DNA of 64,000 nt from Vicugna vicugna (taxonomy: Eukaryota). The stretch spans positions 124,001 through 188,000 of the forward strand of contig MU057786.1 of NCBI GenBank assembly GCA_013265495.1. Reading direction: 5' to 3'. The translations under genes and the position numbers were made by a program. Every line of letters starts with the position of its first letter. Within the stretch, counting starts at the first letter, position 1. Shown here piece after piece: positions 1,431 through 55,001 of the stretch. The notes beneath the pieces are model-generated. The model saw nothing but the letters and a program-made list of their open reading frames with translations, had not been told where the DNA came from and did not search any database.

Positions 1431-3079
1431 TAAAAAAAAACAAAAAAAAGCAAAAACCCAAACAGCCAACAGAAGAGTTCAAACTAACCATCTTGCTGAA
1501 AACAATTAAAATGCTGGCAGGAAAAAATTCTTTTTCTTAAACCTTTTAAGAAAGCATTGAAGAATTAACAGGCTAATGAAACATCACTTGACCTAATAGA
1601 GAGAGAAGATGGAAGAACAGAGCACTCACAATCACTTTTGCCCTCAAGGATTTGCTCATCCACAAGTAATAACAGTGAAATTAAGGCAAAAAGTATTATG
1701 CGTCATAAGCATTACATTTAGGGCAAATCTCTGAAATACCATACATCTGTGGAAAGAAAGAGATCATTCTTGTACTGACAAGATCTCAAAGTCATACTGT
1801 TTGGGGGAAATTCAAATTGCACAGTCATACATACAGTGCATCATAATCCATTAAAGTATACAGTCACATAATATCTGCATATGCTTCTGAGTGCACAGAC
1901 AGAACAATCCTGGAAGGCTATTTATCAAACTGATAAAGATGATTATTTCTGCAGGAAGATGAGATGAGGGGAAATGTGTTTTAACAGGTTTTGTTTAATT
2001 GGTATTGATTTGAGTTTCTTTTAAATAAGAATATATTTATTCATTTCGTATGTATTCAGAAGAAATGTGAAAGGCCAGAAAAATCAAATGAACAGACATA
2101 AAGCTGCCATTGCTACTTAACAGCTGTCTGCAGAGGGTGGTAAATATTGGGCCTATATGATCTGGTTACATTCAAGAGCATCCCAGCAAACCACCCTCAA
2201 CTTAGTTAAAATAGTTCTAATAGCTCAGTGGCAACTTGACCTTTCTGGGGGCAGATTATCATTATTTACTGCCAGAGGCAGGCAGTAAATATAATAAATG
2301 TGTTATATACAACTAAGAGTTCTTAAGAGGTTAACAGGTATTGTGTATTTCAACCAGCATCATATGAATAGATTAATGCAAAAATTGGGAATGATTCTTA
2401 GACTTTTTCCTGAATCTCCTGATCCTCTAAAATCTAAAATGTCTCGATCCCTGAAAGAAAGCAAATAGAGTCAAAGCAAAAAGAGAATAGAGCCAGTTTA
2501 CAAAGAGTTTAAGGTATTTAAAGCGTTTTAAAACATCAAGAGCTGGGGTTGTAACTCAAAACAACTCTGTGCGATGATGTGAAGAAAATGTGACCACTGT
2601 TTGCTGACAAGACCAAGACTCTAGGAGGAAAAGCAGGCGTGTGAGCAGCAGGAACCGGACCCTTCGATGAAGAGCCAAGCTGAGGAAGACGCCAGGAAAT
2701 GGTCGTACTTTACAAACTGTCCCTTTAGCTTTCAAGTAATACCACCTGATGGCTGGCTGAAATCTTACAATCCTCTTAGAATATACAACAGCAGAATTTT
2801 CACTGGGGCGGCTTTTCTCACAACCACCACAAGGAGTTTCTGGCAGACAAGACTTGAGTCAGGCTCTGAAATGGTGATGAACTGAAACAAAGTTTGTACC
2901 TGCTGGTAAAACTGAGCTTTTTACTCCCCTAGTTACAAAACCGTAGAAGTCCAAACGTTGCATGGTGATCGGGGGAGGATGAGTGCAAAATGAAATTAAC
3001 ATGGGCATGAATCGTAAGGTTTGTGAAACTTGGATTTCATTTGGAGTTTTTCTGTGACTTAGCACACGGGTCCAACATG

Positions 3080-3250
3080 CTGCTAGGTGATTTCACATCT
3101 CTTCTCTGATATAATCTCTCCAACCTCCTGGAAGGGTGAGTGGTATCTGTATTTCATTGAGAAATACATTGAGACTTTAGGTCAGATTGGTTACCTGAGG
3201 CCCCATAAGGGGCAGAATCTGGATTTAAACCCAGATCTGCCTGATTCCAA
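3080..3250 (-). mobile_element. MIR SINE fragment
   Basis: gcagaatctggatttaaacccagatctgcctgattccaaa resembles the reverse complement of the MIR core. Confidence 0.5.
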
Positions 3251-3574
3251 ACGTAAGCAGGGGTCGCAGCACTCACGCTGTCCTCCCTGGGGTGACCTCT
3301 CATTGTATCCCTGCATCCGTTAAAGGTCTCTACCTCTTTCTGTTTCATGAGTTTCCCCATCCAGACTGAGTTTGTTGAGGGCAGGAAGCAGGACTTACTT
3401 GTGTTTGAATGTTCAGTGTCCTAATGAAACTGGCTTAAATTAACTTTATTTTTATCTCAATGAATTTCTAAAATAAATTCTAATTTCTTACAGCAAAGAA
3501 GAAACCATTTAAATTTCTCTCTTCTAAGCTTTAGGACTCCAGGAGGGACATAGGTAAGAAAACATTAGACTGAA

Positions 3575-4415
3575 CATCAAAACTACAATGAGGTATCACC
3601 TCATACCAGTCAGAATGGCCATCATTCAGAAGTCCACAAATGGTAAATGCTGGAGAGAGTATGGAAATAAAAGAACCCTCCTACACTGTTGGTGAGGATG
3701 TAATTCGGTGCAGCCACTGTGGAAAACAGTATGGAGATACCTCAAACAGTTGAAAATAGACTTACCATATAATCCAATAATCCCACTCCTGGGCATATAT
3801 CTGGAGGAGACTCTAATTTGAAAAGATAAGTGCACCCCAATGTTCATAATGGAAATATTTACAACAGCCAAAACATGGAAACAACCTAAATGTCCATCAA
3901 CAGATGACTGGATAAAGAAGTTGTGATATACATATACAATAGAACACTACTCAGCCATAAAAAAGAATGAAATAATGCCACTGCAGCAACATGGATGGAC
4001 TTGCAGATCGTCTTACTAAATGAAATAAGCCAGAAAGAGAAAGAAAAATACCATATGATACTTACATGTGGAATCTAAAAAAATGACACAAATGAACTTA
4101 TTTACAAAACAGAGACAGACTCACAGACATAGAAAACAAACTTTTGCTTACAGTGGTGGGGAAAGGGGTGGGAAGGGATAAATTAGGAGTTCGGGATTGG
4201 TAGATACAAACTACTATATATAAAATAGATAAATAACAAGGTCCTACTGTAGAGCACAGGGAACTATATTCAATACCTTGTAATGGCCTATAATGAAAAA
4301 GAATATGACAAGGTATATATATATATATACTGTTGTATATGTATATGAATCACTATGCTGTCCATCGAAATTAACACAACACTGTAAACTGACTAATTCA
4401 ATTAGAAAAAAAGAC
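3575..4415 (+). mobile_element. 5'-truncated LINE-1 3' end, same subfamily as the copy at 1-862
   Basis: Colinear with 1-810 (actacaatgaggtatcacctc...ctgtaaactgacta) and ends in an A tail. Confidence 0.92.
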
Positions 4416-17627: not shown

Positions 17628-19259
17628 ATTACATAAAGCAATCTCTTCTTTTAACCCTCACATCATCCTGCTTCTACAAATAACCATCTAATTACTGCTC
17701 ACACGAATCCTTCCTGCAATCTCTTCAGTTACTTTGATTGGGAAGCTGGTTCTGAGCAGAGTCCTCTCCGAGGGCTCCCGGAACAGTCTCCTGACGCGCA
17801 GTGATAAAGGCGGGGGCAGTATTTCTAAGTTTTACTTTTGCCTCTGGCTCCAATATGTCTCATTACAAGTCTTTTCATGATCCCATCTTCATTTCACAGT
17901 TTGGTATTTTGCTCAGGAAGGACTATTTGGCACTGATTCTGCTTTTTGAATAATTATTACATCAAAACCTTATTTATCTTGATTTCTGAGTTGTTTGTCG
18001 TCCCCTGAAATTTTGTGCCTGTGCCCAGTGACTTCTTGCCTCCCCTGGTTCTAGCCCTGAGTTGAAGCGTCTCTGTCCTCGGTCTTATAGGTTCCCATCC
18101 TGACTAATTTTTCCCCCCGCACTCCTTATAGTTGACATCCACTGGGGGTTCAGTGCTAACATAGCCCAGGCACCGCAGTTTGAGAATTCAAGGACTTTCA
18201 TACCTTACCTTGGAGCTCTGCCTTGATCACTGGTGGTGTGAACCAAGTTCCTCCTCGTATCAGCGGCAAGTCCTTGCCTGACTTCTGCATGGTATGACCG
18301 CAAGGCACTGCTGTGGGTCCTCACTCGGCCTCAGCACCGCGCATGCGTGGGGCCCTCCTGGGAAGTAGGGTGGATGCTCGCTCCTTCTGCTACTGTACTG
18401 AGCATGTGCAGGGCCCTCAGACGTTTACTTGCACTGTTACTAAGTCTACTTTGCCCAGACTTTTGAGATATTCGGTGGGTCTCAGGGCTGTTATTCACTC
18501 ACTTGGATTTTGCAGTAATGAGGGATACCTTGTATTCTAGACTTGTTGTAAATGGGTTTTGGTTTTCATATAATATGCTCTGTGTTTATGTGGAGATTCT
18601 GGAAGACAAAAATTATGCTTCCATGAACATAGCCATATTCCCAGAATTCTTATATTTATTTTATTTTTGAAAGGATACTTCAAAAAAAATGAAGGACAAA
18701 ATTATTTTTCAAGTACAGAAAGCATTAAAAAATATTACACTGAAAAAAACCCACAAAAGAATAATGTTTGCTCAATGCCTATGCATTTTCTCATTGTTAA
18801 CAAAGCAGATTTCAACTGCTAAAGATGTGACAGCTCCTGGTCCAGGCAAGATGTAGACCAGACAATCCAAACACCCTTGTGCTACAAACACTCAGATGTG
18901 GGATGGCCTGGTCAAGCTCAGGAGAGAGAAAGGGAGAGGCCTCAGAGTGAAGAGGAAGGGAGGACAGGGTTCCAGTTTGTGATCCAATGTGTCAGCTGTG
19001 GGCGGTGGGGCAGTGGTGGGGTGGGTCCTGATATTGGTCCATGGAGCCAGGTGAGCATCTTTCTGATTTTCACCTCTTTTGAAGGGAGAGAAGGCAGGAT
19101 CAGGGATGCAGACACAAAGGCACATAAAGCGAGGTCTGTGGGTGGATTCTGCCCCTAATAGACGTTGACTAGAAAACATTTTACTCACTGAGGAAGCTTT
19201 GATATCTGAACTCTGGGTCAGAAGAGAGATACTCCTCTGAGGGGAATATTTGCTAGATC

Positions 19260-20129: not shown

Positions 20130-21935
20130 AGATAATATGAAATTGAATCCCCCAAATTAAAATACTTAGGAGTAAGTCTAACCATGGAAGTGAAAGACTT
20201 AGAGAACTAGAAAACATTGACTAAGGGAATTGAAGATGCCTTAAAAAAAGGGAAGGGTACCCATGAGCTCTTGAACTGGAAGAATGAATACTGTGAACAC
20301 AGCCATACTCCCCAAAGTGATGTACAGACTTAATGTGATCCCTGTCACATAACACAGGACATGTTTCACAGAAGTAGATCAAATCATCCTAAAATTTATA
20401 TGGAGTCACAAAAGACCTAGAATTGCCAAAGCAATACTGAAGAAAAAGAATGAAGCTGGACGAATAACCCTCCCAGACTTCAGACAGTACTACAGAGCTG
20501 CAGTCATCAAAACAGCATGGTATTGGCACATGGCATAAAAACAGACATATGGACCAAAGGAACAGAATGGAGAGCCCAGAAATAAACCCACAGACTTTTG
20601 GCCAATTAATCTTTGACAAAGGAGACAAGAACATACAAGGGAGTGAAGACAGTCTCTTCAGCAAATTGTGTTAGGATAACTGGACAGCTGCGTGTAAATC
20701 AGTGAAGCTAGAACACTCCCTCACACCATACATAAAAATAAACTCAAAATGCTTAAAGGCTTAAACATAAGACAAGACACTATAAAACTCTTAGAAGAAA
20801 ACATAGACAAAACTTTATCTGACATAAATCTTAGGAAGATTCTCCTAAGGCAGTCTACCTGGCTATAGAAATAGAAGCAAAAGTTAACAAATGGGACCTT
20901 TTAAACTTAGAAGCTTTTGTTCAGCAAAGGGAACCATAAGCCAAACAAAACAACTTACAGAATGGGAGAAAATATTTGCAAATGATGCGAATGTCAATGG
21001 TATAATTTCCAGAATATACAAATAGTGCATACAACTTAATAACAACAAAACAAACAACCCACTCCAAAAATGGGCGGAACACCTAAACAAGCAGTTCTCC
21101 AACGAAGACATACAAATGGCCAATACCCACATGAACAATGCTCAAAATTGCTAATTATCAGACAATGCACATAAAAAACTTCAATTAGGTATCACCTCAC
21201 ACCAATCAGAATGGCCATCTCAAAAGTCCACAAACAATAAATGCTGGAGAGGCTGTGGAGAAAAGGGAACCCTCCTACACTGTTGGTGGAAATGTAGTTT
21301 GGTGCAGCCATTGTGGAAAACAGTATGGAGATTCCTCAAAATATTAAAAATAGACTTACCATATGATTCAGAAATCCCATTCCTGGGCGTATATCAAAAG
21401 GGAAACTTAATTCCAAAAGATACATGAACCCCAATTTTCATAGCAGCACTATTTACAATAGTCAAGATACAGAACGAAACCTAAATGTCCATTGACAGCT
21501 GACTGGGTAAAGATGTTGTAGTATATTTATACAATGGAATACTACTCAGCCATAAAAAGAATAAAATAATACCATTCGAAGTGACATGGATTGACCCAGA
21601 GATTGTCATTCTAAGTGAAGTAAATCTGAAAGAGAAGGAAAAATACCATATGATATAATTTATATGTTGAGTCTAAGAAAAAAAAAGACAAACTTATCTA
21701 CCAAACAGAAACATACATAGAAAAGAAACTCATGGTTACCAGGGGAAAAGAGGGTGGGACTGGATAAATGGGAGTTTGAGATTTGCAGATACTAACTACT
21801 AAACATAAAATAAACAACAAGTTCACACCATAGAGCACAGGAAATTGTATTCAATATCTTGTAGTAACTTGTGGTGAAAAAAATATGAAAATGAATATAC
21901 ATATGTCATGTATGACTGAAGCACTGTGCTGTACT
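20130..21935 (+). mobile_element. LINE-1 ORF2 3' part and 3' UTR, degraded
   Basis: aaatacttaggagtaa..ccagacttcagacagtactacagagctgcagtcatcaaaacagcatggta..; 3' UTR similar to 1-862. Confidence 0.9.
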
Positions 21936-24629
21936 GTGAAGGGCAATTGAAGACTTTGTCACAGAGGAGGGAAGGCTGAGTACAGGGAGCGCAAAGAGCA
22001 GTCCAGGCAGCAGGACTAAGTTAGGGCAGAAACATGACAGAATGACATCTTCAGATGCCAAGGGACACATCATAAAAACGTCCAATATTTTTCCGTCTAA
22101 GCCATCACTCAGGAGTAAAAGCAAAATAACATCATTTTCAGATCAAAGTAAATAAGAGATTTTGCCACTGTCAGGCTGTCACTGAGAGTGAGGAAGGATG
22201 GATTTAAGGAAGAAGTGGAGAGTGAGACACGGAGGCAGGAAATGGGTGAGTGCAGGTCTGACAGTCACAACTGTGTAAACCAACAATCAGGGGTTAGTAA
22301 GAACACTTACCACGAATAATGAGAAGGCAGAAGCCTTTGTGGTTCAGTGTTGTGTCCTGACCAGCACCAACCACCCTAGCAGGGCTCAGGAAGCCTGAGC
22401 TGAGATAGGAAGGGCAGAAAAATACTTACATACTATTCATTCATAACTATCTGTGTAAGAAGAATTGCACACCATTAAAAAGTGGGAATTATTCCTGGAA
22501 TGCAGGAAGACTTCAACCTAGGAACATGCATCAGTGTAATACACTACACTAACAGTGTGAGGAGAAAAAAGAGGAGCATCTCAATTAATGCCGAGAAAGC
22601 AATGGAAGAAATTCAATACCATCTTCTGACTTTCATGTAAACATGAGAAATTTAAAGGGTAATATTTGCATAAGGTTTCTTTTAACATAACTCTAGCACA
22701 ACTGGCTAATAGCAATTTTTAGAAGTATCACACCATTCTATATTGCACTATAGCACAATATCACTTCCTTCTGTTCCTCTTCTATGTGTCAGGTCTTTCA
22801 GAGCCTCATCAGAGAAAGGGCAAAATTCAGTAGGGATGCTCATTGCAAAGAAAAATATATTTGTTTTATGATATCGAGTTAAACATTCATTGCTCAAGGA
22901 ACACCAACCATTGTGACAGTCATGCAGAGTCGTATTTCTCCACGTGGTTATTGATTTTTAAATTCAGTCCCATCATGAAACTTTAGGTCCATAGGATCTA
23001 GTACTGTGACATTGGATCCCTGAGGGAATTAGAGGTGTCCCTTGACCTAGAGTGGAGAGCCACAAAATAGGACAGTCACAGAGGCTGAAGTGAGCAGAGA
23101 AGTGACAGCAGATGGTGAGATGTGACATGGGAGAGCCCTGGGATCAGGTGGGTCCTGGCTGAGGGGCGCTGTGGGAGGGTCTTCAGGTGTAAAAGGCCTG
23201 GCAGGTAAGGAAGGTGCCTATGTATGATGACCTCCTGTCAGGACAGCTCCAGGAGAGCCCCCATTTCAAATACATTCCCAAACCTGTCACATCTTGCCTC
23301 CCAAATGTATTCCGTCAGCAATACTCGGCCAAGTGCTGGGCTAGAGACCTGTAATGTACTCGAAACCAAGGCGTAGACTCTGCTCCCAGGTGGCTGAGAA
23401 TTTAATATAATACAATACAGGAAAAGCCGTTGTAGGTAGAGGATCAGGAAATTAAAATCATAACCTGTCCCTCTCCCACAGTTCCTATAATCACTGTTCT
23501 TTATTCTGACACTTTAGGATACACAGGATTTTAGCAAAGCCCCCAGGGGAAAGCAGATTCAGTGCTCTGGGGATAGAAGTCCACGAGGACCCACCTTGGC
23601 TGTGCTGAGCAGGAGCTCTTTCCCTTGGAGTGACTCTCACTGAGGCCTCCTGCCCCCCTACAATTGTCTCCTAGGGATCCAGGGACAACCCCGCTGTCCT
23701 GTGAGCAGGCCACTTGCTACCCAAATCTACATCACACACACAAAAGGCAACATGAATTAAAATATCTCTTCTACATTGCACTGATTGTCAAAGTCTTTTA
23801 TTTAAATAGATATTTACAGATAGTTGGAGGGAGAGAGGAAGGGACAGAGGTGGACACAGACGGGGCTGGACACAGAATTATATACATGTCTATGTGTCAC
23901 AAGGGACAACGTCCACTCAGTACCTCACCTTATATTTGTGACTTATTTACATTAGCTTACAAGTGAGATTGAAGAAGAAAAGCAAAGCTCTATAGCTTAA
24001 AGAAATCCTCAGTTCATAAAATGCTCTGATGAAGGATAAATTGGTAAGCACCATATTTGAACAGAGCAGAGTGTTTGTCATAAGCAGTTACACACCTCCC
24101 TCTGGTGGCCATATGAGGAATGTCATGGATGCTGCTGGCTCCATGGATGTCAAACAGGCAACAATCGCACACACAAATCAGTGATGCTGCTAGAAGAAAA
24201 CAAATTCTATGAGATTAAAAGTTCGGGGTTGCCTTCTATTCGAAGTCCTTCCCTTCATCTTGAGATGACCGGGCACTTCCCAAGGGCAGGGTCTCAGGGA
24301 GTGCTGATGGAGCCCCTGAGTCAGGTCCTGGGTCCACAGCAGACAAGGGAGAGGAGGGACCTGCAGGGAGAGGGTGGGCACGTGCTGGGGTCACTTGTCC
24401 ACGTCCCCGCCCTGTGTGTCTGGTGCAGAGAAGTGAGTCTACCTGAACAAAGACATGTAGGGCACTTTGATGTTTATATTAACGATAAAACACAGACAAA
24501 ACAGGCAGCAAGTGATATGTTACCACCTCTAAGAATAATCAGGAATTGTAAATTCACAGACACATCAGGAACAGTGGGCGTCCCGGCCCTGAAAGCAACG
24601 GGAGACAGCGGAGCCTGACTGAGACTTAC

Positions 24630-24729
24630 CGCGCGTCCCTCTGCTCTGGCTCTGGCGCTGTCGCAGGCAGGAGGGCTGGAGCTGGCGCTCCATCCAGAGG
24701 GGTTTCCCCAGCGGGTTCTGGAGCTGGTG
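24630..24729 (-). CDS. RALGDS-like exon 6, P/A/E-rich linker (A)PAPEPAGETPLDGAPAPALLPATAPEPEQRDA(R), then stop
   Basis: ctacag| acceptor in the phase required by exon 5; |gtaagt donor; composition like the RALGDS post-REM linker. Confidence 0.7.
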
Positions 24730-24995
24730 CTGTAGCTCCAGGAAGGGAAACTCTCATCAACAGGACTGCTTTCCCACGTGTCTCTCAAAGACAGGGGAGC
24801 CCTCACTGCTACTCAATCAACTCTCAGTCCAAGATTCCACCCCAGGAAGCCTTCCCAGACTGCAGTCCAGGGGATGAGTGTTCTGAGCCTCCTCATTGCT
24901 CTTGAGCCAGTTCCAGCCTCGGGAGGCTCTAATCTGTGTGGTTCACTGCCTTCCCCGCCCCCCTCACCCCATCACCCACCCAGCATCTTCCTCAC

Positions 24996-25189
24996 CATCA
25001 TCCTCTGTGTCCGGAAGCTCCAGGTGCTCCAGCTCTGCCAGGAGAAAGTGGACCCAGTACTTCAGGTCAGAGCCAGGCATGCTCAGCTCTATGTAGGTGA
25101 GCACGGTCTTCAGGCAGGGAAATTCTGGAGGCTGGTGGAAATCCTCTGGGTACTGGTGCAACCAGGTGCCCAGGATGGAGGTCATGGCC
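24996..25189 (-). CDS. RALGDS-like exon 5, REM second half
   Basis: ccccag| acceptor, |gtgag donor, 194 nt; AMTSILGTWLHQYPEDFHQPPEFPCLKTVLTYIELSMPGSDL matches RALGDS AISSILGTWLDQYSEDF.QPP.FPCLK. Confidence 0.92.
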
Positions 25190-26137
25190 CTGGGGGTAGT
25201 GAGGGGGACAGCAGAGTCAGTGACCGGGCCTTGTCCAGCACACTGGGCTCCCAGAGCAACCCAGCAGGGACCTGGGCCTCTGCCTTCGGCTCCTCTCCAT
25301 CCAGAGGCCGGCTCTGCTCCACATCCCATCTCACCTGGCAGTCTGGGCAGAGGCGGGCCTGGGCAGAGAGGAGGGGCTGCTACAAGCTTCTGAAGGGACA
25401 GCCCTTGGTCAGCGGTGTGGGCACCTCTCTACCTCTTCAGGGACACATGTCACTCTGCTCTGTCCCTCTCCCTGCCCCTCCCCACTGGATGGCACCTCTG
25501 TGAGGACAGGCAGGCTGTGTGCTCTGGGCGCTGCCCTCTGGGAACACGGGAGCTGCTCTATGAGTCTCTGACCCAGGAGGGAACAGACAGGCTGTGTCTG
25601 CCGCCCAGGCTTCCCCCGGGCCTCCTCACTCCTCAGACATTAGCTCCTGCACCTGCCTGCTGCCTAACCCTCCAGGGACCTTGCCTTGGTCTCCTCCTGC
25701 CCCTGCCACTCAGCTTCCACAGGGTGGGCTCAGCTGTCCCCTGAGGCTCACGGGGTCCCCTGAGCGCCAGCTGAGTCCCCACCATTGAGGCTCCACTAGA
25801 TGATGGTGAGCAGGATGCTGTCCACCCTTTGCGTTCTGGGTCCCAGGAAGGAGTGGGGGCAGGGCTGGGATGGAGAGAGGATGGCTGTGGGTTCTCTTAG
25901 GGGCTGACTCTGTCCTCTGACCTCCCAGATTCCCTTCACAGCACCACAGCCCCATCCACAGCTCTCTGGGTCTCCTTTCCTCTTTGCCAGGAGAAGCCCT
26001 AAGACTTCTGCTCTCAAGCCAGAATCAGAGGATGTGGAGGATCCAGGGCCCTGCCCACCTCTGCCCATCCACACAGCCCACAGCTCCACAAAGTTTTTGG
26101 GGAAGGAGTCCCTCCAACTTCAATCAAAGAAACTCAC

Positions 26138-26197
26138 TGTTTCAGCTGGTGCAGGGGTCCACTGTCCTCATCGCTAGAAGGGAGGGCGCATCCGTAT
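26138..26197 (-). CDS. RALGDS-like exon 4: (R)YGCALPSSDEDSGPLHQLK(Q)
   Basis: tctag| acceptor, |gtgagt donor, 60 nt, in phase with neighbours; resembles RALGDS YGCILPYSDEDGGPQDQLK. Confidence 0.85.
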
Positions 26198-26829
26198 CTA
26201 GATGAGACCAGGAAGGCGTCACATGGACTGTCCTGAGCACACTAGCTGGATGTGATGTCTAGTGTGACAGTGTGAGTCCCGGGAGAATGGAAGCCCTGGA
26301 GGGCAGGGCTGTTGTTTGCTCGATGCATTAAATGATGGTTGTTCCTAGAAAAGCACCTGTCCCCAGGGCCCTTCCTATATATTTGAGGAATGAGTGAGCC
26401 CACCCAGCCCTACAGCGCACATCTGAGTGGGCCTGGGACCCTACTTGTCCCTCCCAGGGATCCCTGCTCTCACTCTCCCAGGACAGGGACAGCTAAAGGA
26501 ATCACCGATCCCCTTTGAAATGGGAAAACAGTTCCACCCAAGGCCACAGTCCCAGTGACACAGGAGGCAGAGGCTTCCTCATGGACAGGAGGACAGTGAC
26601 CACTTAGCAGACCCACAGCCCCTCCAGCTGCCCTTTCCAGGGGCCAGGTCCCCAGAAAGCACTTTCCATGAAGGACCCCCTCTGTTCCTCCCCTTCTAGG
26701 GCCTGCTCCTCTCTTGACCCCAGTGTGCAGAGGGGCAAACTGAGGCTCAGAGAGTTCGAGGTCCAACCCCACATGTCACTGCTAGTAGGTGGCCGAGTCC
26801 TCAATGTCCCATGAGGACAGAGTGCTCAC

Positions 26830-27023
26830 CTTTGGAGCAGAAGGTCCAGCACCTGCTGGGCAGTGGCAAAAGATCTATAGCTGCCCAGGAATGTGAGCAA
26901 GTAGGAAGGGTTGCCGCCCAGCATGGCAGGCACCAGGTTTGCCACCAGCTTCTCCAGCCTTTGTTGCTGGAGGCTCCACACCCTGTGGGTCTCATCCCTG
27001 CTCCCTGATGGTCCAGCTCCCCC
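26830..27023 (-). CDS. RALGDS-like exon 3, REM (RasGEF_N) first half
   Basis: ccccag| acceptor, |gtgag donor, 194 nt; LEKLVANLVPAMLGGNPSYLLTFLGSYRSFATAQQVLDLLLQR matches the RALGDS REM motif LEKLVEHLVPA..FL.TYR.F.T.QQVLDLL. Confidence 0.92.
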
Positions 27024-27641
27024 CTGGGGTGGAAGGAGGACAGACATGAGTCAGAGGCAGCACCGGGGACCAGCAGGGGAATGAGTTGAATCCTCAAGCC
27101 TTAAGGTCTTGTGCCTGAGGTGGAACAGGGGAGCCCTGGACAGATTCAAGGTTCTCAGCATCATCAGTGCAAGGGGCAGAGGGCGATGATTAAATGCGTT
27201 AGCATCTCAGATCACTGTGTCAGCACCGCAGTGCCAGCCCCTCCCTGCATGATGCCTCATCCCTGTGACTGCTGTCACAACATCCCAATGTAGAGATGAG
27301 AACATAGAGGCTGGTCCCGGGGTGGGAGGGATCAGGACTGTCAGGCCAATGTGAACACGTGGGGATGGAGGAGAAACAGGACAATCTGTCGAAAATGCAG
27401 AAACACGCTTGTCCTAACGTGAATTGAAATTCTGTCAAACTCTCTTCCTGAGATTCGGACTCATATGTGGGCACTGACTTTGCATCTGGCCAAGGCAGGG
27501 CCTGGGCTGTGAGGGCAGGTGGGTGAGACATGGAATCAGATTCCTTTGCCAGCAGGTCTCTAAGAGGGAGCGCGGGGGAGAAGCGGGGCAGCTGTGGGAC
27601 CCGGGGCTTCCTGGGTGTGGAGTCTCCTCGTTTGCACTCAC

Positions 27642-27752
27642 CCTGAGCCTGTCCTGGGCTCCCTTGGTGTCGTGGGGCACCTGCCCCTCCTGCAGGGAGG
27701 TCACATGGGGGACTCCATGGACCAGGTCCTGTCCCATCCCCTGTGTGGAGTC
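27642..27752 (-). CDS. RALGDS-like exon 2: DSTQGMGQDLVHGVPHVTSLQEGQVPHDTKGAQDRLR
   Basis: tttgcag| acceptor, |gtgagt donor, 111 nt; resembles RALGDS SSTQEIGEELINGVIYSISLRKVQLHH. Confidence 0.85.
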
Positions 27753-28164
27753 CTGCAAACATAGTGCCCAGTGGCCAGGCAGAGACCTCAGAGCCCTGTC
27801 TGGCTGTCTTGACTGGTTCTCAGACCCATAAGACATCTCCAGTCCCAACACACACAGAACACTTTCTGCACAAACCTCCATTAGGGACAAGAAAGATGAC
27901 AACCTGAGGGCCTTGGATTCCCACTGGCACAGAGGAGAGGCCTTCAGGAGTCCTCTTTCCCCCCTATCAGCCCTGTCCTCGGGTGTGGCCATGACAGGAC
28001 CACCAGGTTACCAAGTGTTCAACAACCTGTTCCCACCCAGAGGGGACACCTCCCCTTAGGTCCCCCTTCTCTGACATGGAGATGAGGGGAAGTGGGCCTG
28101 CCCAGGGAGGGCCCCCAGAGGAGGCTGGGCCAGGACTGGCCTGCTCCAGGCCACCCCGTGTTAC

Positions 28165-28302
28165 CTTAGGTGCCCTCCTCCTAAAAGACCAGAGGTGTCA
28201 CAGTTGAGGGTTCAACCAATGGCTAAAGGCACTGAACAACCTCTCAGTCCAGGGTTTCCTGGCGGAGAAGCCCCGGGAGTTTGTGAAACAGGAGCAGAAC
28301 AT
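28165..28302 (-). pseudogene. RALGDS-like coding exon 1: MFCSCFTNSRGFSARKPWTERLFSAFSHWLNPQL*HLWSFRRRAPK
   Basis: ATG at 28302; 46 codons; phase-0 donor AAG|GTAACA matches phase-0 exon 2; TGA at 28200-28198. Confidence 0.72.
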
Positions 28303-28479
28303 GCTTCTTCTTTAACTGTCTCCAGCCAAGTGAGCTGGCTCTGGGGCTGTCACTAGAATGTGGGTGCCTGGTAACCAGGTTCCGTTTCTGTTGGGGTCTG
28401 TGGTCAAGGAAGTGACCTCACTTCCTGGGGTCCACTTCCTTGGACCCCCTCCTCAGACAGCACCTCCACACACAGCCCT

Positions 28480-28740
28480 CCGGGCTGCTGCCTGCGCACC
28501 CCCTTCCCCGCGCAGCCCCACCGCTCCCGCAGTTACAGCGCCCCGCCCGCCCCACGGCTCCCGGGGCGGCTCTGCCTGCGGCTGTGAGGAGCCGCCCCGG
28601 CTTCCAGACTCCACTCCTCATTCTTACCTGCTCTCCATCCTGGATTTACCCTGGTGTTTCTCCAGGACGGGCTCCCCACCTGCACAGCGGGGCTGGTTCT
28701 AGCTCGTGCTTCTACGGACGTCCTCAGGCGCATGTGGGAT
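28480..28740 (-). promoter_or_regulatory. small CpG-rich region and candidate upstream exon (donor CAG|GTAAGA after 28628) of the RALGDS-like gene
   Basis: Local CpG enrichment, GGGCGG boxes and a strong minus-strand donor about 330 bp upstream of the ATG exon. Confidence 0.4.
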
Positions 28741-30899
28741 AAGACCTGACAAGTGTGGGAGTGATGTCACTGGTAGGGGATGCCTCCAAACCCCTTTTTT
28801 TGGTCTTATTACCACCCTAACATCAATTTCTCTCCTGATCCTGGCCCATAGTCCTTACTTAATGTCACTGTGCCCGTGTGTCTATGCGTTTGTGTGTGTG
28901 TGTGTGTGTGCTTGTGCACACATGTAAGCCAGTGCTCACACTCTGTGTGGCCTGCAGAAAACTGGCCCCACATGGAATGGTTGTGCAAGAGCTTCCTGAG
29001 GTCTGAGGGTTTCTAATTTCCAAAGCAAACCTGATGAGGGAGGTTCAAGCCTTGGCCAGCAGGTCAGAGCACTGTGACTCCAGGCCATGCAGGTGGCAGC
29101 GGCTGGAGCTGGGATCACAGACCCACACAGTCTGGTTCCACTGTCCACACTCAGAACCACAGTGCTGGGGGCAGGGAGGCCGTCCCCTTCCCGGGCACAC
29201 GGCCTGGCAGGGTCATCTTCTCTGGCTGGACACACAGTGGTCCAGGGACAGTTGGGCAGTTGAAGGGTTGCTGTCACCAGAGATCTGACAGTCTCACCTG
29301 GTGCTGCCTCTATGTTCCTGTCCTCACATCCCTCTCCCCGAGTTCCAGCCCCAGTGTAACAGTCACCTTCCCCAGGAACAACAGGATTTGTTTGCGCTGG
29401 AGGAAGAGGATCCTCAGCCTCAGTGGGAATTCCTCGGTAATCAGTTCCTCCCAGTGATTTCATGAGGAACATGTATCAGATCTGATCTAATCTCATAAGT
29501 GCCTAAGGTTCAGTTGGCCCCAAGTTGCCTTCTGGAACTCTTTTCCTCCCCTCCACCATCCGTGCAGCTTCTCCATCTCCCCACCTGCTCAAGCCGGAAC
29601 CTGGGGCTCTGTCTGCTCCCTCTTTCCTCCTCACCCCACATGCAGTCAGCTCCTCCCCGTCCCTGGGTCCCAACTCCAAATGCGTTCGTCACCTCTCTGT
29701 ATCTCCCTCCCCCTCCCTGTCCAGGCCACCACTGACACTGTCCTGGATGCATGCTCTTTGCTTCCCTTTCTCACTCCCTCTGACCCGGAGGGATGTTTAA
29801 AAGACAGATCTGTTCCTGTCACTCTGCGAACACACAGGAAATCTCTCAGAGGCACTTTGGGGAAAAGCCCCAATTCTCAGTCAGACGTGAAGCCCCTCCT
29901 CCTGCCAGCAGCCCACCTGGCCTTGCTGCCCTCAGTCCAGCCACTCTGGCCTTTGTCTATTCTTCCAAGGACCACCCCCTGTCTCGCATCAAAAGCCCCA
30001 GCCTGGGAGCCCACTGAGATCTTTACCTGGATGACTCCTCCTTCAGGTTTATCTCAAATGCTGCAAGTTGCTCTGCCCTGGCCCTCAGTTTCTCCCCCAT
30101 GGCTCTTTCCATCATCCTGGGAGTCTTCTTTGCAGTGTCCTGGGCCCCAGGGTTTGCCTGGGGAAGGTGCAGGGGCCCGGGATCCTGGGCAACCTCCTGG
30201 TTCCTAGCCCTGTGACTCCTCCTGCCACCAGCTTGCATGTGACCACAGAGGGCTCTGTCACCCCCTGTCAACCTGGTAGAAGAGGCCTTATAGACCTTCA
30301 GAGCCCCTCCTCCCTGCTGGTTTTCCAAGGCGAATTCAAGAGGGAAAGCCAGGGCAGTGGGCGGGGCTTTCAGATGCTGCCCCGCCCATCACAAGCCCCT
30401 CTCCTTTTTCAGTTTCCTTGGTTGGCCTTTCAGGGCTCAGTGCTCAGAGTCACCTGGGGGCAAATCCTCACTTCTATTGTTTTACTATGTGGCTGCTGCA
30501 AGTCACCTTGTTTTTTTTCTTCAACATGCCTGGGACTATCCCAGGCACTGGGAATACTGCGGGGAATGAAACCTACAAAGAGCCTGCCGGCTCGGAGCTT
30601 ACAGCCCAGCGTGGGTAGACTGACCATCAATATGTTTATATCTCTGTTGGAGCTGGACCCCTGCCCCCTCCCTCCAGCTGCTACCCCATCTCTGCTTCCC
30701 TTTAAAGCAAACACTGTCAGAGGCTAGTCCAGATTCTGCTCCAACGGCTCTGATGGAATTATCTGTCTGTGAGAAGAGCATTCTGGGTGGAGCAAATAGC
30801 AAGCCGCAGTTCAGGGGATTCAAATAGTCCAGGTGCTGGGCTGGGTGGGAGGGCAGCAGGTTTCATGCCTTCGAGGAAACGCTAGAGAGAGGTGAGTGT

Positions 30900-31950
30900 G
30901 AGTTGGGGGCAGGAGGGCTCTTGGCCCAGGAGTGACAGGATAGCCACTCAGTAACTGAATCCTTATGGCTGCTGCACAAGATCAGAGGACATGAGAGGAG
31001 TCACAGGATCAGATGGGGTGACTGTGTTGTAAGGATACCAGGGTGGTGCTGGTGGAGGGGTGGGAAGAGGCTGGATTCCAGATCTGAGTTGAAGCTAGAG
31101 AAGTTAGGATTTGCTGTTGGACTAGATGTGGGATTTAAGGGACACTCAAAAGTTTCTGAACATCAGAAAGGCTGGAACTTTCTGGGTCGTTGAAGACTGT
31201 TGGAGAAGCTGGCTTGGGGATGGGGAAATAAGGAGCTCACCTTTGGACATGTCCAGTTAGCGCTTAACAGAGGACCTCTAGTGGTGATGCTGGTTTGAAG
31301 TTGATAATAAAGGGGAGGAATTCAAAGAGGTCTAAGCTGGAAATCAAGGTTTTTGAGGCAGGCAGAGATAGCACTTAAAGCATTGGAACTAGGTGAGATC
31401 ATTCAGAGACCAAATGTGAAAATGAAAGAGCAAAATGTGTGTGTGTGTGTTGGGGTGGTGGGGAGTAGGGTAGACTGGGCAGGAGAAAGCAGAGAGGAAG
31501 TCGGGGAGCGGGGTGAGTAGGGCCAGGTGAAGGGAATGTTTCATGGAGAAGGGCATGTCGTCTGTACCAAATGCTGAAGGGGCAAGATGAGGACTGAGGG
31601 GTGACCACTGGATTCTGCAACATGGAGGCCACGAGTGACCTTGACAGAGAGGTTGTGTGAATGGTGGGGGTGAGGCTTGAAGTGGGTTCTAGAAAGAACT
31701 GGCAGAGCATTTGGAGGGGAGTCTAGACAAGCCTCTGACAGTGTCTGCTTTAAGGGGCAAGAGAGATGGAGCAGCAGCTGAGGGAGGTGGGAAGGTCCAG
31801 GTCCAGTAGAGAAGTCAGCATGTTGATGCAGGAGAGGGGGGAGTCGCGGGAGTGACGTCCTAGGGTGGAGAGCTTGACTTTCCAGGAGCAAGTGCATCTC
31901 CTGCACAGAAACGGAGAGAACAGGCTGTAAGCACAGATGCTTCTGGGGGG
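30900..31950 (-). mobile_element. LINE-2 fragment (RT region)
   Basis: Minus-strand translation HHSHNLSVKVTRGLHVAESSGHPSVLIL resembles the L2/CR1 RT motif HSTETALxKVTNDL..SVLILLD. Confidence 0.75.
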
Positions 31951-51200: not shown

Positions 51201-51649
51201 GAATCTCTCACGCCCAGCGCAGGGCCCTGATCAAGGCAGAGGCCTTGGGGGCAGGCCAGCAACAGGGCTCAGGGGTGCTCCTGGGCTCGCGGGAGCAGCC
51301 TCTCCTAAGAGGCTCTGCCAGCCGCTCCCAGACCGAGAGCTTCCTTGGAATCCTGGTCTGGGAAGGCTCAGTTGTCTCCCCAAAATCTTGAGTGTGCCAC
51401 GTGCAGCCCACTCTGTCTGAAACTTGGTAGGGTGGGTGGGGGCGATGGGGAAGGGTGGCTACGCTTCAGGCTTGCCACCTCCTTCCAGGCTGGAGCCCAA
51501 ACAGCTTAACGCTGTATCTGGTGGTGGCGGCTGGCCGGAGGCATCCATGGAGCAGTGGAGAGAGCCCCGCTCTCCGCTGGCTACAAGAAGCAAGCTCTCC
51601 GCCTGGGCTTGCGCGTAAAGGCTCCGTGCAGGGTCGGAGTCTGAGCACG

Positions 51650-53240
<1,591 letters not shown>

Positions 53241-53486
53241 NNNNNNNNNNNNNNNNNNNNNNNNNNNNNNNNNNNNNNNNNNNNNNNNNGGTGGGTGGGT
53301 GTTGTCAGCGTGTGTCGCTTTGTATGTACCTGGTACCGTGTTGGTGTCACTGCGAGAGGGCGTCGGGGTGTGTGGGGCCATCCAAGTCTGTGTTGATGCG
53401 TGCACGACTGTCTGTCAGCCTGTCAAGAGTGGACACTGTCTGCCTGTTTCCTTGGTGTGTGTGTATTTCTTAGTGTATGTGTGTGG

Positions 53487-53530
53487 GAGAGAGAGAGAGA
53501 GAGAGAGAGTGTGTGTGTGTGTGTGTGTGT
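53487..53530. repeat. compound (GA)n(GT)n microsatellite in GRID1 intron 1
   Basis: gagagagagagagagagagagagtgtgtgtgtgtgtgtgtgtgt. Confidence 0.9.
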
Positions 53531-55001
53531 ATCTGGTTGTGGCGATGGCAGCCTAATCCTGGACAGTCCCAGAGTTTCCCATGGCCCAAGTGTTGGGGGC
53601 TGGCAGATGGCCTGGGTGGTGGGAGCCAGAGGAGAAGCCTGGGCAGCGGTGTGTTGGGGCAGTGTGTGTGCGCAGGCTGAGCGGGATTTGACCAACGGAG
53701 GGAGAACCGGGAGAGAAGAGGAGACAGGAGAGGAGGAGGGGGCCGGTGGATGGGGAGTGTGTGGGAGTTGGTAGCAGCATGGGAGAAATCCCAGGAAGTT
53801 GGGCCGGGTTAGGGGATTGACAGTGGTTGCTTTTAGGGAGCTCTTCTGCAGTCGCCTTTCCGGAAGTTGGGAAAGACCATCGAGCCCAGAGAAACTGGGG
53901 GTTGGGAGGTGTGAGAAGGCAGGAATGATGGGACAGGCCAGGCAGGGATGTGAGGGGTGGTGAGGGACTAGGCCTGGGCTTGGTGTGCTGCAGTTCCCCC
54001 GGCAGGGGCCAGGGCCAGTCCTGCTTCCCAGTGGTGGGTGGTGGTGGGGGGCGCTTGGGTCTTGGGTCTTGTGGTCAGCATTGCGGCTCTGGGTATAGCA
54101 TGGAAGGGTACCTCCCTCCTCCTGCCCAGCCCCCAGCTCCCAGGATCACTGGGCCCAGCCCTGGGACTACGGTGAACCTCAGAGCCTGGAGGGGAGGAAG
54201 GACTCCAGAGTTGTGCAGGCTGCAGGGCCAGGCTCTGGCGAGTCTGACGGATCTTAGCTGCAAGTGCACAGAGTCAGCCAAGGCGGTGCTAAGAACGCAA
54301 AGGGCCAGCCGGAGGCTGCCCGGGAGGAGATGTTCATGGTTCAAGAGCAGCTCCTTCTGGCTCCTCAGCCTTGCTGTGTCAGAAGGCAAGGTGTCCAGGG
54401 ACATTCTCTTACCCACCGGACCCCCAGTGTACTTGGAAGAAGAAAAAGCGGGGAGGGATGGAGAACAGGAGGCAGAGCCCAGGCAGCCAGGCTGGGACTG
54501 AGCTGCCTGTCATCAGTCATCAAAAGCCCCTACATAACAAAGCCCCCTGACACAGGAAAGCCACTGTGGACCTGCTTGCTCAGCTCCATGCCAGCAGGGA
54601 AGAAGGAAGTCATCAGTCAATTTTTGGGATGGGGACTGGGGTCATTGCCCTGCGGGGGAATTTTCTGGCTCCTAGGATGGCACTTACGGGGCCATGTCAG
54701 GGCATTTAGGAGCTGCCTGAGGTCATGCCAGCTTGGCTCAGTCCATTATATGGGGGCATGTCTGGTACATAAGGTGGCTTGATTGTGAGACACTTGTGTG
54801 ACCTGGCGGCAGCATGTATCATGTGCATGTGTAACTCATGTCAACTGTGTTGGCATACGGGGGCGGGCATATTTCTGTGCTGGTGGACTGAGGAGAGCCT
54901 TAAACTATCCTATCTGGCTAGAACTCCAGCCCAGAACTCCCACCACCTGGCAACCTGCAGTCCTGCCAGCACCATGACCCAAGGGCCAAGGGTAGGGGTG
55001 A

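Follow-up and report, generated by a model that had tools for sequence, protein, structure and literature searches.

A locus on the minus strand of a 64-kb stretch of contig C827 from the vicuña Vicugna vicugna (here called the window; its assembly comprises 2.03 Gb in 12,405 contigs) carries exons for the REM domain of a protein related to the Ral exchange factor RALGDS. Our analysis indicates that this locus is probably a decaying copy within a multi-copy, segmentally duplicated family of RALGDS-like genes that have the REM domain and lack the catalytic CDC25 (RasGEF) and RA domains. A reading made earlier from the letters of the window alone (the original prediction) had instead described an open frame of six exons and 266 codons, purposely REM-only and preserved by coding constraint. 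Much of that exon structure is correct, but the frame is interrupted in exon 1, a seventh exon had been overlooked, and both ends of the coding sequence bear lesions that belong to this copy alone.

Gene structure of the window locus

All six exons of the original prediction were recovered at the coordinates it gave, with GT at 6/6 donors, AG at 5/5 acceptors and a single shared frame. Exon 1 (28165–28302; positions are those of the window, and all exons lie on the minus strand) is the first exon of the family (MFCSCF...) and ends in a GT donor. The frame of 266 codons proposed for these exons was not found: together they total 797 nt, equivalent to 265 codons plus 2 nt, and codon 35 in exon 1 is an in-frame TGA (28200–28198). 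The exon-1 ATG (28302–28300) opens a frame of 34 codons, and this exon now amounts to an upstream open reading frame (ORF). Exon 2 (27642–27752), bounded by an AG acceptor and a GT donor, contains a further ATG at 27737–27735. Exon 3 (26830–27023) encodes the first half of the REM domain, exon 4 (26138–26197), identified by its splice signals and by tblastn, the REM linker (RYGCALPSSDEDSGPLHQLK), and exon 5 (24996–25189) the second half of the domain, corresponding to RasGEF_N profile positions 79–102. Exon 6 (24630–24729) encodes the proline-rich start of the RALGDS linker.

The stop codon thought to follow exon 6 directly is CGG TAA, which results from reading through the consensus donor that ends this exon (GCGCG/GTAAGT, the slash marking the junction). 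A seventh, terminal exon (23797–24360) begins at the acceptor at 24360 and contains the true stop at 24323–24321 followed by the 3′ untranslated region (UTR); it is supported by the splice model of a public protein, P0002, and by alignment to other copies. As originally proposed, an AATAAA lies at 23802–23797 with a GT-rich run downstream. When the seven exons are spliced and read from the exon-2 ATG (27737), the product is a 227-aa ORF identical to P0002, a model from Vicugna pacos named RALGDS-like isoform X2 that extends beyond exon 6 into exon 7; exon 5 taken separately is likewise 100% identical to it. All six introns are retained with GT-AG ends, and the intron loss of a processed (retrotransposed) pseudogene is not seen here.

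A GC-rich, CpG-enriched patch (28400–28599) on the same strand, 100–300 nt upstream of exon 1 and within the duplicated unit described below, is a candidate promoter (GC 0.72; CpG observed/expected 0.62, compared with 0.05–0.38 in the adjoining 200-nt bins).

A REM domain without CDC25 or RA coding sequence

The public model P0002 matches the Pfam family RasGEF_N (PF00618) over residues 52–144 with 58.0 bits against a gathering cut-off of 28.3, and exon 3 alone suffices for a match (34.5 bits, same cut-off, E 2.5e-8). In tblastn comparisons with RALGDS proteins, exon 3 showed 48–53% identity and exon 5 62–63% in 4/5 queries and 61% in the remaining one.

Searches of the entire 64-kb window by tblastn, using five CDC25-bearing (E ≤ 10) and four RA-bearing (E ≤ 1) RalGEF proteins, found no CDC25 or RA coding sequence; apart from noise, the queries matched only exons 3, 4 and 5. 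As a positive control, the same queries recovered the CDC25 exons of the RALGDS locus itself (L047, 7857–9055). A six-frame scan of the whole assembly with the CDC25 profile PF00617 returned 55 matches, none of them on C827 or on any contig carrying a copy of the family. One weak tblastn match at 18600–18671 (E 0.1–0.2 with 4/5 queries) was rejected as noise, since its DNA is not homologous to the gene and is interrupted by stops in all three frames. None of the window's 20 longest stop-to-stop ORFs matched a Pfam family. The absence of CDC25-like exons downstream, which the original prediction had reported by eye, is thus confirmed, and the window locus has neither the CDC25 nor the RA domain of a Ral exchange factor of the RALGDS/RGL type.

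Comparison with RALGDS (L047, G000:C4996) places the locus as a relative of its N-terminal, REM-bearing part. The REM exons are homologous and laid out in the same way, with exons 3, 4 and 5 showing 70–76% DNA and 49–66% protein identity between the two loci. The window locus and its family stop after a short tail, whereas in RALGDS a linker exon and the CDC25 exons follow; the RALGDS introns can no longer be aligned to those of the family, and nothing matching the family's first exon was detected at L047.

The locus belongs to a segmentally duplicated family

A paralogous protein of 308 aa, P0011, matched 128 exon-sized places on 32 contigs (128 of 448 candidates were scored); three of these contigs carry RALGDS itself, another RGL gene and a recent RALGDS fragment. 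For comparison with the window, 39 family loci and RALGDS were retrieved. Over its full length, with introns, the window gene is 77–92% identical to the 39 loci, the closest being L028 on contig C10552 (92%); the genome has at least 40 copies, counting the window locus. Homology reaches well beyond the exons: the upstream flank (28901–31950) is 82–97% and the downstream flank (22038–23790) 82–89% identical to family contigs. These flank matches delimit a duplicated unit, or duplicon, of ~10 kb (approximately 22040–31950) that carries the whole REM-only transcription unit and ends ~1.7 kb past the polyA signal, within a dispersed repeat. This repeat (20300–21935), which forms the downstream border, is L1-like and of high copy number (26,963 first-look candidates; 40 were scored, among them more than 30 dispersed loci of 79–85% identity).

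The unit consists of seven exons and comprises the first exon, the REM domain, the start of the proline-rich linker, a short tail and a polyA site; no copy has CDC25 or RA. The original prediction had regarded the locus as a partial DNA-level duplicate with an N-terminus and a 3′ end of its own. Duplication at the DNA level, with introns and with a separate polyA site, is supported by these alignments; the acquisition of a new N-terminus is contradicted by the distribution of the first exon in other mammals (see below). Preserved exon phases had also been put forward as a sign of coding constraint. Because the DNA was copied together with its introns, and these are as conserved as the exons throughout a unit that is 77–92% identical, the phases are preserved in any case and are not evidence of selection on the coding frame.

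Several further features of the duplicated sequences were recorded. Inverted repeats of ~126 bp, 79% identical to each other, lie towards the upstream end of the duplicon, at 30625–30752 and 31703–31828, and are found in other copies too; they are probably short interspersed elements. In 13/39 copies homology is lost at the start of exon 4 (the equivalent of ~26200 in the window), leaving exons 1–3 only; these copies (L022, L024, L025, L027, L030, L031, L034, L035, L037, L038, L039, L041 and L043) do not form one clade. Finally, L049 (G000:C11065:452500-459500) contains at its positions 2324–4317 a separate and very recent partial duplicate of RALGDS, spanning exons 3–5 with introns, which is 95–96% identical to L047 and already has in-frame stops. 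This fragment indicates that partial duplication of the RALGDS REM end has occurred on more than one occasion.

Two private lesions in the window copy

The state of each copy was read in the window's frame over the alignable parts of exons 1–6. Only 6/39 loci (L009, L010, L011, L013, L016 and L028) were without a stop, a frameshift or a lost splice site. In a tree of 35 rows, from which L022, L029, L044, L045 and L048 (coverage <70%) and RALGDS (L047) were omitted, 5/6 intact copies grouped as one young clade, and the window copy and L028 were sisters on long branches.

The exon-1 TGA is private to the window copy; at this position L028 and four intact copies read sense codons. A second private lesion lies at the other end of the coding sequence, where a frameshifting deletion of 14 bp follows the first 3–5 bases of exon 7 (about 24358–24355); the 14 bases are present in all five copies that can be aligned there, L028 included. 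The deletion exchanges the family tail (…SCEAAASSLLSAVDPGPSS…) for RSLLSLVCCGPRT-stop, and the 227-aa product consequently ends in an aberrant tail of 13 residues. The window copy has the whole-unit homology of the family and shares with P0011-type paralogues the seven-exon plan and the REM-only architecture; unlike them, it has no open exon 1, its tail is frameshifted, and no open frame runs from the exon-1 ATG to the family tail.

These lesions suggest how a transcript of the locus would fare. Translation from the exon-1 ATG would give a 34-residue peptide, and with the stop so far upstream of the last junction nonsense-mediated decay would be expected. The 227-aa REM-only protein with its aberrant tail would be made only if ribosomes reached the exon-2 ATG by leaky scanning or re-initiated there. 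The probably decaying window copy would be either a transcribed pseudogene or on the way to becoming one.

Substitution at the window copy is near neutral and its divergence is a mosaic

Between the window copy and L028, the non-synonymous (dN) and synonymous (dS) rates were 0.045 and 0.052, giving a dN/dS of 0.86, compared with a neutral expectation of 0.76. This expectation was computed by enumerating all single changes under CpG and transition/transversion rates taken from the introns of the 14 sister pairs described below. No constraint is detectable at the window copy in these alignments, and together with the two private lesions this speaks against the proposal that a REM-only architecture is being maintained here by coding constraint.

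Divergence from L028 was lower in exons than in introns (4.9% versus 7.4%, p = 0.014). We considered this difference as a sign of constraint and rejected it, because divergence changes block by block and exon-free windows at 25880–25381 are equally low (2.4–4.0%). Divergence is 0.8% at 28630–28381, 8–14% at 28130–26381, 2.4–4.8% at 25880–24381 and ~9% thereafter. The comparison of 23780–30860 with C10552 is a mosaic throughout, with an upstream flank that is 97% identical and diverges by 0.8–3%. A mosaic of this kind, combined with 97% upstream identity, suggests interlocus gene conversion rather than coding constraint.

Family transcripts are spliced

A search of sequencing runs identified eight recorded as RNA in which 7–13% of the sampled words occur. 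Four runs were compared with the window at a likeness of ≥97%, and three of them gave contigs. Runs X2 and X5, both from a single study and annotated as reproductive system, gave contigs with the joint between exons 4 and 5 (25188/26137, GT..AG, minus strand); the short side of this joint is 22 letters long, and the joint may derive from a paralogue. Loose contig ends coincide with exon boundaries of paralogues, those at 27024, 24740 and 24631 with the exon-2 end, exon-5 end and exon-7 start, one of them being exactly equal to the disrupted copy L021, and the end at 24631 (run X1) joins a paralogue exon 6 to exon-7-type sequence. These ends indicate that family transcripts are spliced at the 2/3, 5/6 and 6/7 junctions and that even broken copies are transcribed; the spliced family RNA comes from runs labelled reproductive tract. 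In the window, several intron bins were covered, and the exon-7 bin 24308–24484 had zero depth in all three contig-bearing runs. In the single-cell run X18 no reads matched, ~1/100 of the run having been sampled, and this run is hence no test.

Two non-canonical joints were also seen in the RNA contigs, 24730/25063 (TG..TT, X5) and 27022/27255 (CC..TG, X2 and X5, low depth), and may be artefacts of placing paralogue contigs on the window copy.

REM-only relatives and the age of the first exon

Multi-copy RALGDS-like paralogues, as mentioned in the original prediction, are annotated in many mammals. A HMMER search produced 484 hits at E ≤ 0.001; among the best 150, the 80 newly scanned proteins (~200 aa or longer) comprised 44 with RasGEF_N and no RasGEF, 22 with RasGEF and 14 with neither (E ≤ 1e-5), all of these being gene predictions and some of them fragmentary. 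REM-only models occur in horse, cattle, pig, cetaceans, carnivores, rabbit and elephants, whereas rodent, manatee and armadillo relatives retain the catalytic domain. One cluster at 90% identity (P0075) holds 63 REM-only models of horse and Przewalski horse, mostly of 286 aa and on single chromosomes, and represents a recent large amplification in equids.

A first exon of the form MFSxCF begins 10/16 aligned proteins, from camelids, pig, horse, rhino, rabbit, fox, cattle, elephant and kangaroo rat. In the kangaroo rat protein P0054 it is followed by a REM domain and a full RasGEF domain (148.9 bits). Since this exon is common to placental orders and is present in a CDC25-bearing member, the N-terminus is old and was not acquired by the window duplicate. 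A protein search with residues 1–52 of P0011 returned P0011 itself only, the query being too short for the coarse word index. The RasGEF domain is also kept in the relatives from beaver (P0100), manatee (P0097) and armadillo (P0128), which differ from the window product in this respect; their layout of REM and CDC25 without RA, shared with P0054, presumably resembles that of RGL4/Rgr. The best match to the CDC25 part of P0054 in the genome is RALGDS itself (51% identity), and no closer CDC25-bearing counterpart was therefore seen in alpaca.

The C-terminal tails vary between orders. Those of mink and stoat (P0102 and P0052, mustelids) and rabbit (P0108) include a hydrophobic stretch of ~20 residues that resembles a tail anchor, and the mink/rabbit form of this tail had no significant match in the window or in the 40 loci. 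In a Camelus ferus model of 493 aa (P0016), an RA domain is joined to two incomplete REM copies belonging to this family (Pfam RA and RasGEF_N). The RA part looks RASSF-like, and the model is probably a prediction mis-joined across neighbouring genes.

Alternative explanations for the locus

A number of observations weigh against decay, and most of them would be expected if the locus were a working gene, with exon 1 as a 5′ leader containing a short upstream ORF and the exon-2 ATG starting a 227-aa REM-only protein that acts as a non-catalytic modulator. The public pipeline models the locus as protein-coding, its P0002 being identical to the window ORF. The exon-2 ATG at 27737 lies in a good context, with G at both −3 and +4. 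For the REM core of the 227-aa product the helical REM fold is predicted with confidence (predicted local distance difference test scores of 85–94 over residues ~50–170), and the invariant REM residues of the family are retained. Two contigs from run X1 are closer to the window copy than to L028, one in the 3′ UTR (23880–24005; 2 versus 9 mismatches) and one in intron 4 (25387–25515; 1 versus 6), so the window copy may be transcribed. Such a protein might either occupy partners of the RALGDS N-terminal region such as PDK1 or dock on a RalGEF catalytic domain in trans. Two reviews are compatible with these modes, one describing the N-terminal part of RalGDS as autoinhibitory and PDK1-binding (PMC3215182) and the other a GEF-independent scaffold role of RalGEF (PMC6534338). 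Nevertheless, a working gene at this locus is unlikely. The ratio of 0.86 against 0.76 is that of neutral sequence, the private deletion destroys the C-terminal tail, the private TGA destroys the family first exon, and the closest RNA contigs include intron and may be pre-mRNA or DNA carry-over, the exon-7 bin 24308–24484 having no depth.

Function may also be sought at the level of the family, in that laurasiatherian REM-only genes could constitute a working family with birth-and-death turnover, weak purifying selection and spliced transcripts, acting in trans on RalGEF/PDK1 signalling, with a window copy that is damaged but could still yield the 227-aa protein by re-initiation. Across 14 non-overlapping sister pairs the Nei-Gojobori (NG86) ratio was 0.58 against the neutral expectation of 0.76, the corrected family dN/dS was likewise 0.76, and observed/expected values were 0.72 for non-synonymous and 0.94 for synonymous changes (binomial p = 0.019). 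Purifying selection on the family as a whole thus appears significant but weak. The alignments behind these values are BLAST alignments anchored on the window, and conversion blurs the histories of the pairs, a caveat that bears equally on the near-neutral value for the window copy. Short intact REM-only models are moreover annotated in many mammalian orders. We regard a working family of this scope as possible but doubtful, and a decaying window copy within a duplicated family as the probable account. Any role of stand-alone REM proteins would then lie with the few intact young paralogues.

Two further explanations can be set aside with more assurance. The locus could be the front part of a full exchange factor, with CDC25 and RA exons located beyond the window or hidden by a gap in the assembly, and it is true that the assembly is fragmented into 12,405 contigs and that the kangaroo rat, beaver, manatee and armadillo relatives keep CDC25. 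This is very improbable, because neither the 24 kb downstream nor the 64-kb window as a whole contains a match to either domain, 0/55 genome-wide PF00617 matches fall on C827 or family contigs, the duplicon runs out in the dispersed repeat shortly after its polyA signal, and the public model and paralogue RNA both terminate in exon 7. Least credible of all is the six-exon gene as first proposed, with 266 codons ending after exon 6 under coding constraint and a newly acquired N-terminus. Its exon coordinates, splice signals and shared frame are correct and no CDC25 lies downstream, but it is incompatible with the TGA at codon 35 and with a used exon-6 donor leading to exon 7; its first exon is common to placental orders and a CDC25-bearing member, its introns are as conserved as its exons, and its dN/dS is near neutral.

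Relation to known REM proteins and truncated duplicates

In crystal structures of Rlf/RGL2 and of SOS1/SOS2 (4JGW, 5CM9, 1BKD and 1NVX), the REM domain always packs on the CDC25 domain of the same chain, unlike the window product, which has no CDC25 domain.

A precedent for truncated copies with function is human SRGAP2C, a truncated segmental duplicate that acts on the pathway of its parent gene and for which expression and dominant effects have been shown. The window copy resembles duplicates of this type in being a partial DNA-level duplicate that keeps the N-terminal interaction domain of a signalling regulator, and differs from them in being damaged. A role as non-catalytic decoy or modulator is at most plausible, and then for the small number of intact paralogues, where a free REM domain could compete for the N-terminal partners of RalGDS.

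Elsewhere in the window, a very GC-rich block (51600–54600; GC up to 0.675) contains two runs of N at 52290–52315 and 53241–53289. Long open frames on both strands of this block (up to 372 aa) gave no Pfam match.

Significance for the RALGDS-like family

Public annotation already includes the locus and its relatives, and the family is annotated but unstudied. Within the full-text literature, with subscription journals outside its coverage, no paper on a REM-only RALGDS-like family or its expansion was found. An elephant RGL-like paralogue is mentioned in passing in one article (PMC7806701). According to a survey of human, mouse and rat (PMC3141262), the set of Ras switch genes is practically fixed in mammals, and RGL4 is one of the few genes that vary. 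The present analysis adds a corrected gene model, the lesions, a census of the family in this genome and a test for selection. For the window locus the result is mainly corrective, in that a seemingly purpose-built REM-only gene is best understood, in all probability, as a lesion-bearing copy of a duplicon. If it is true that some intact members of the family work, they would offer a natural test of the function of a REM domain that lacks its CDC25 partner.

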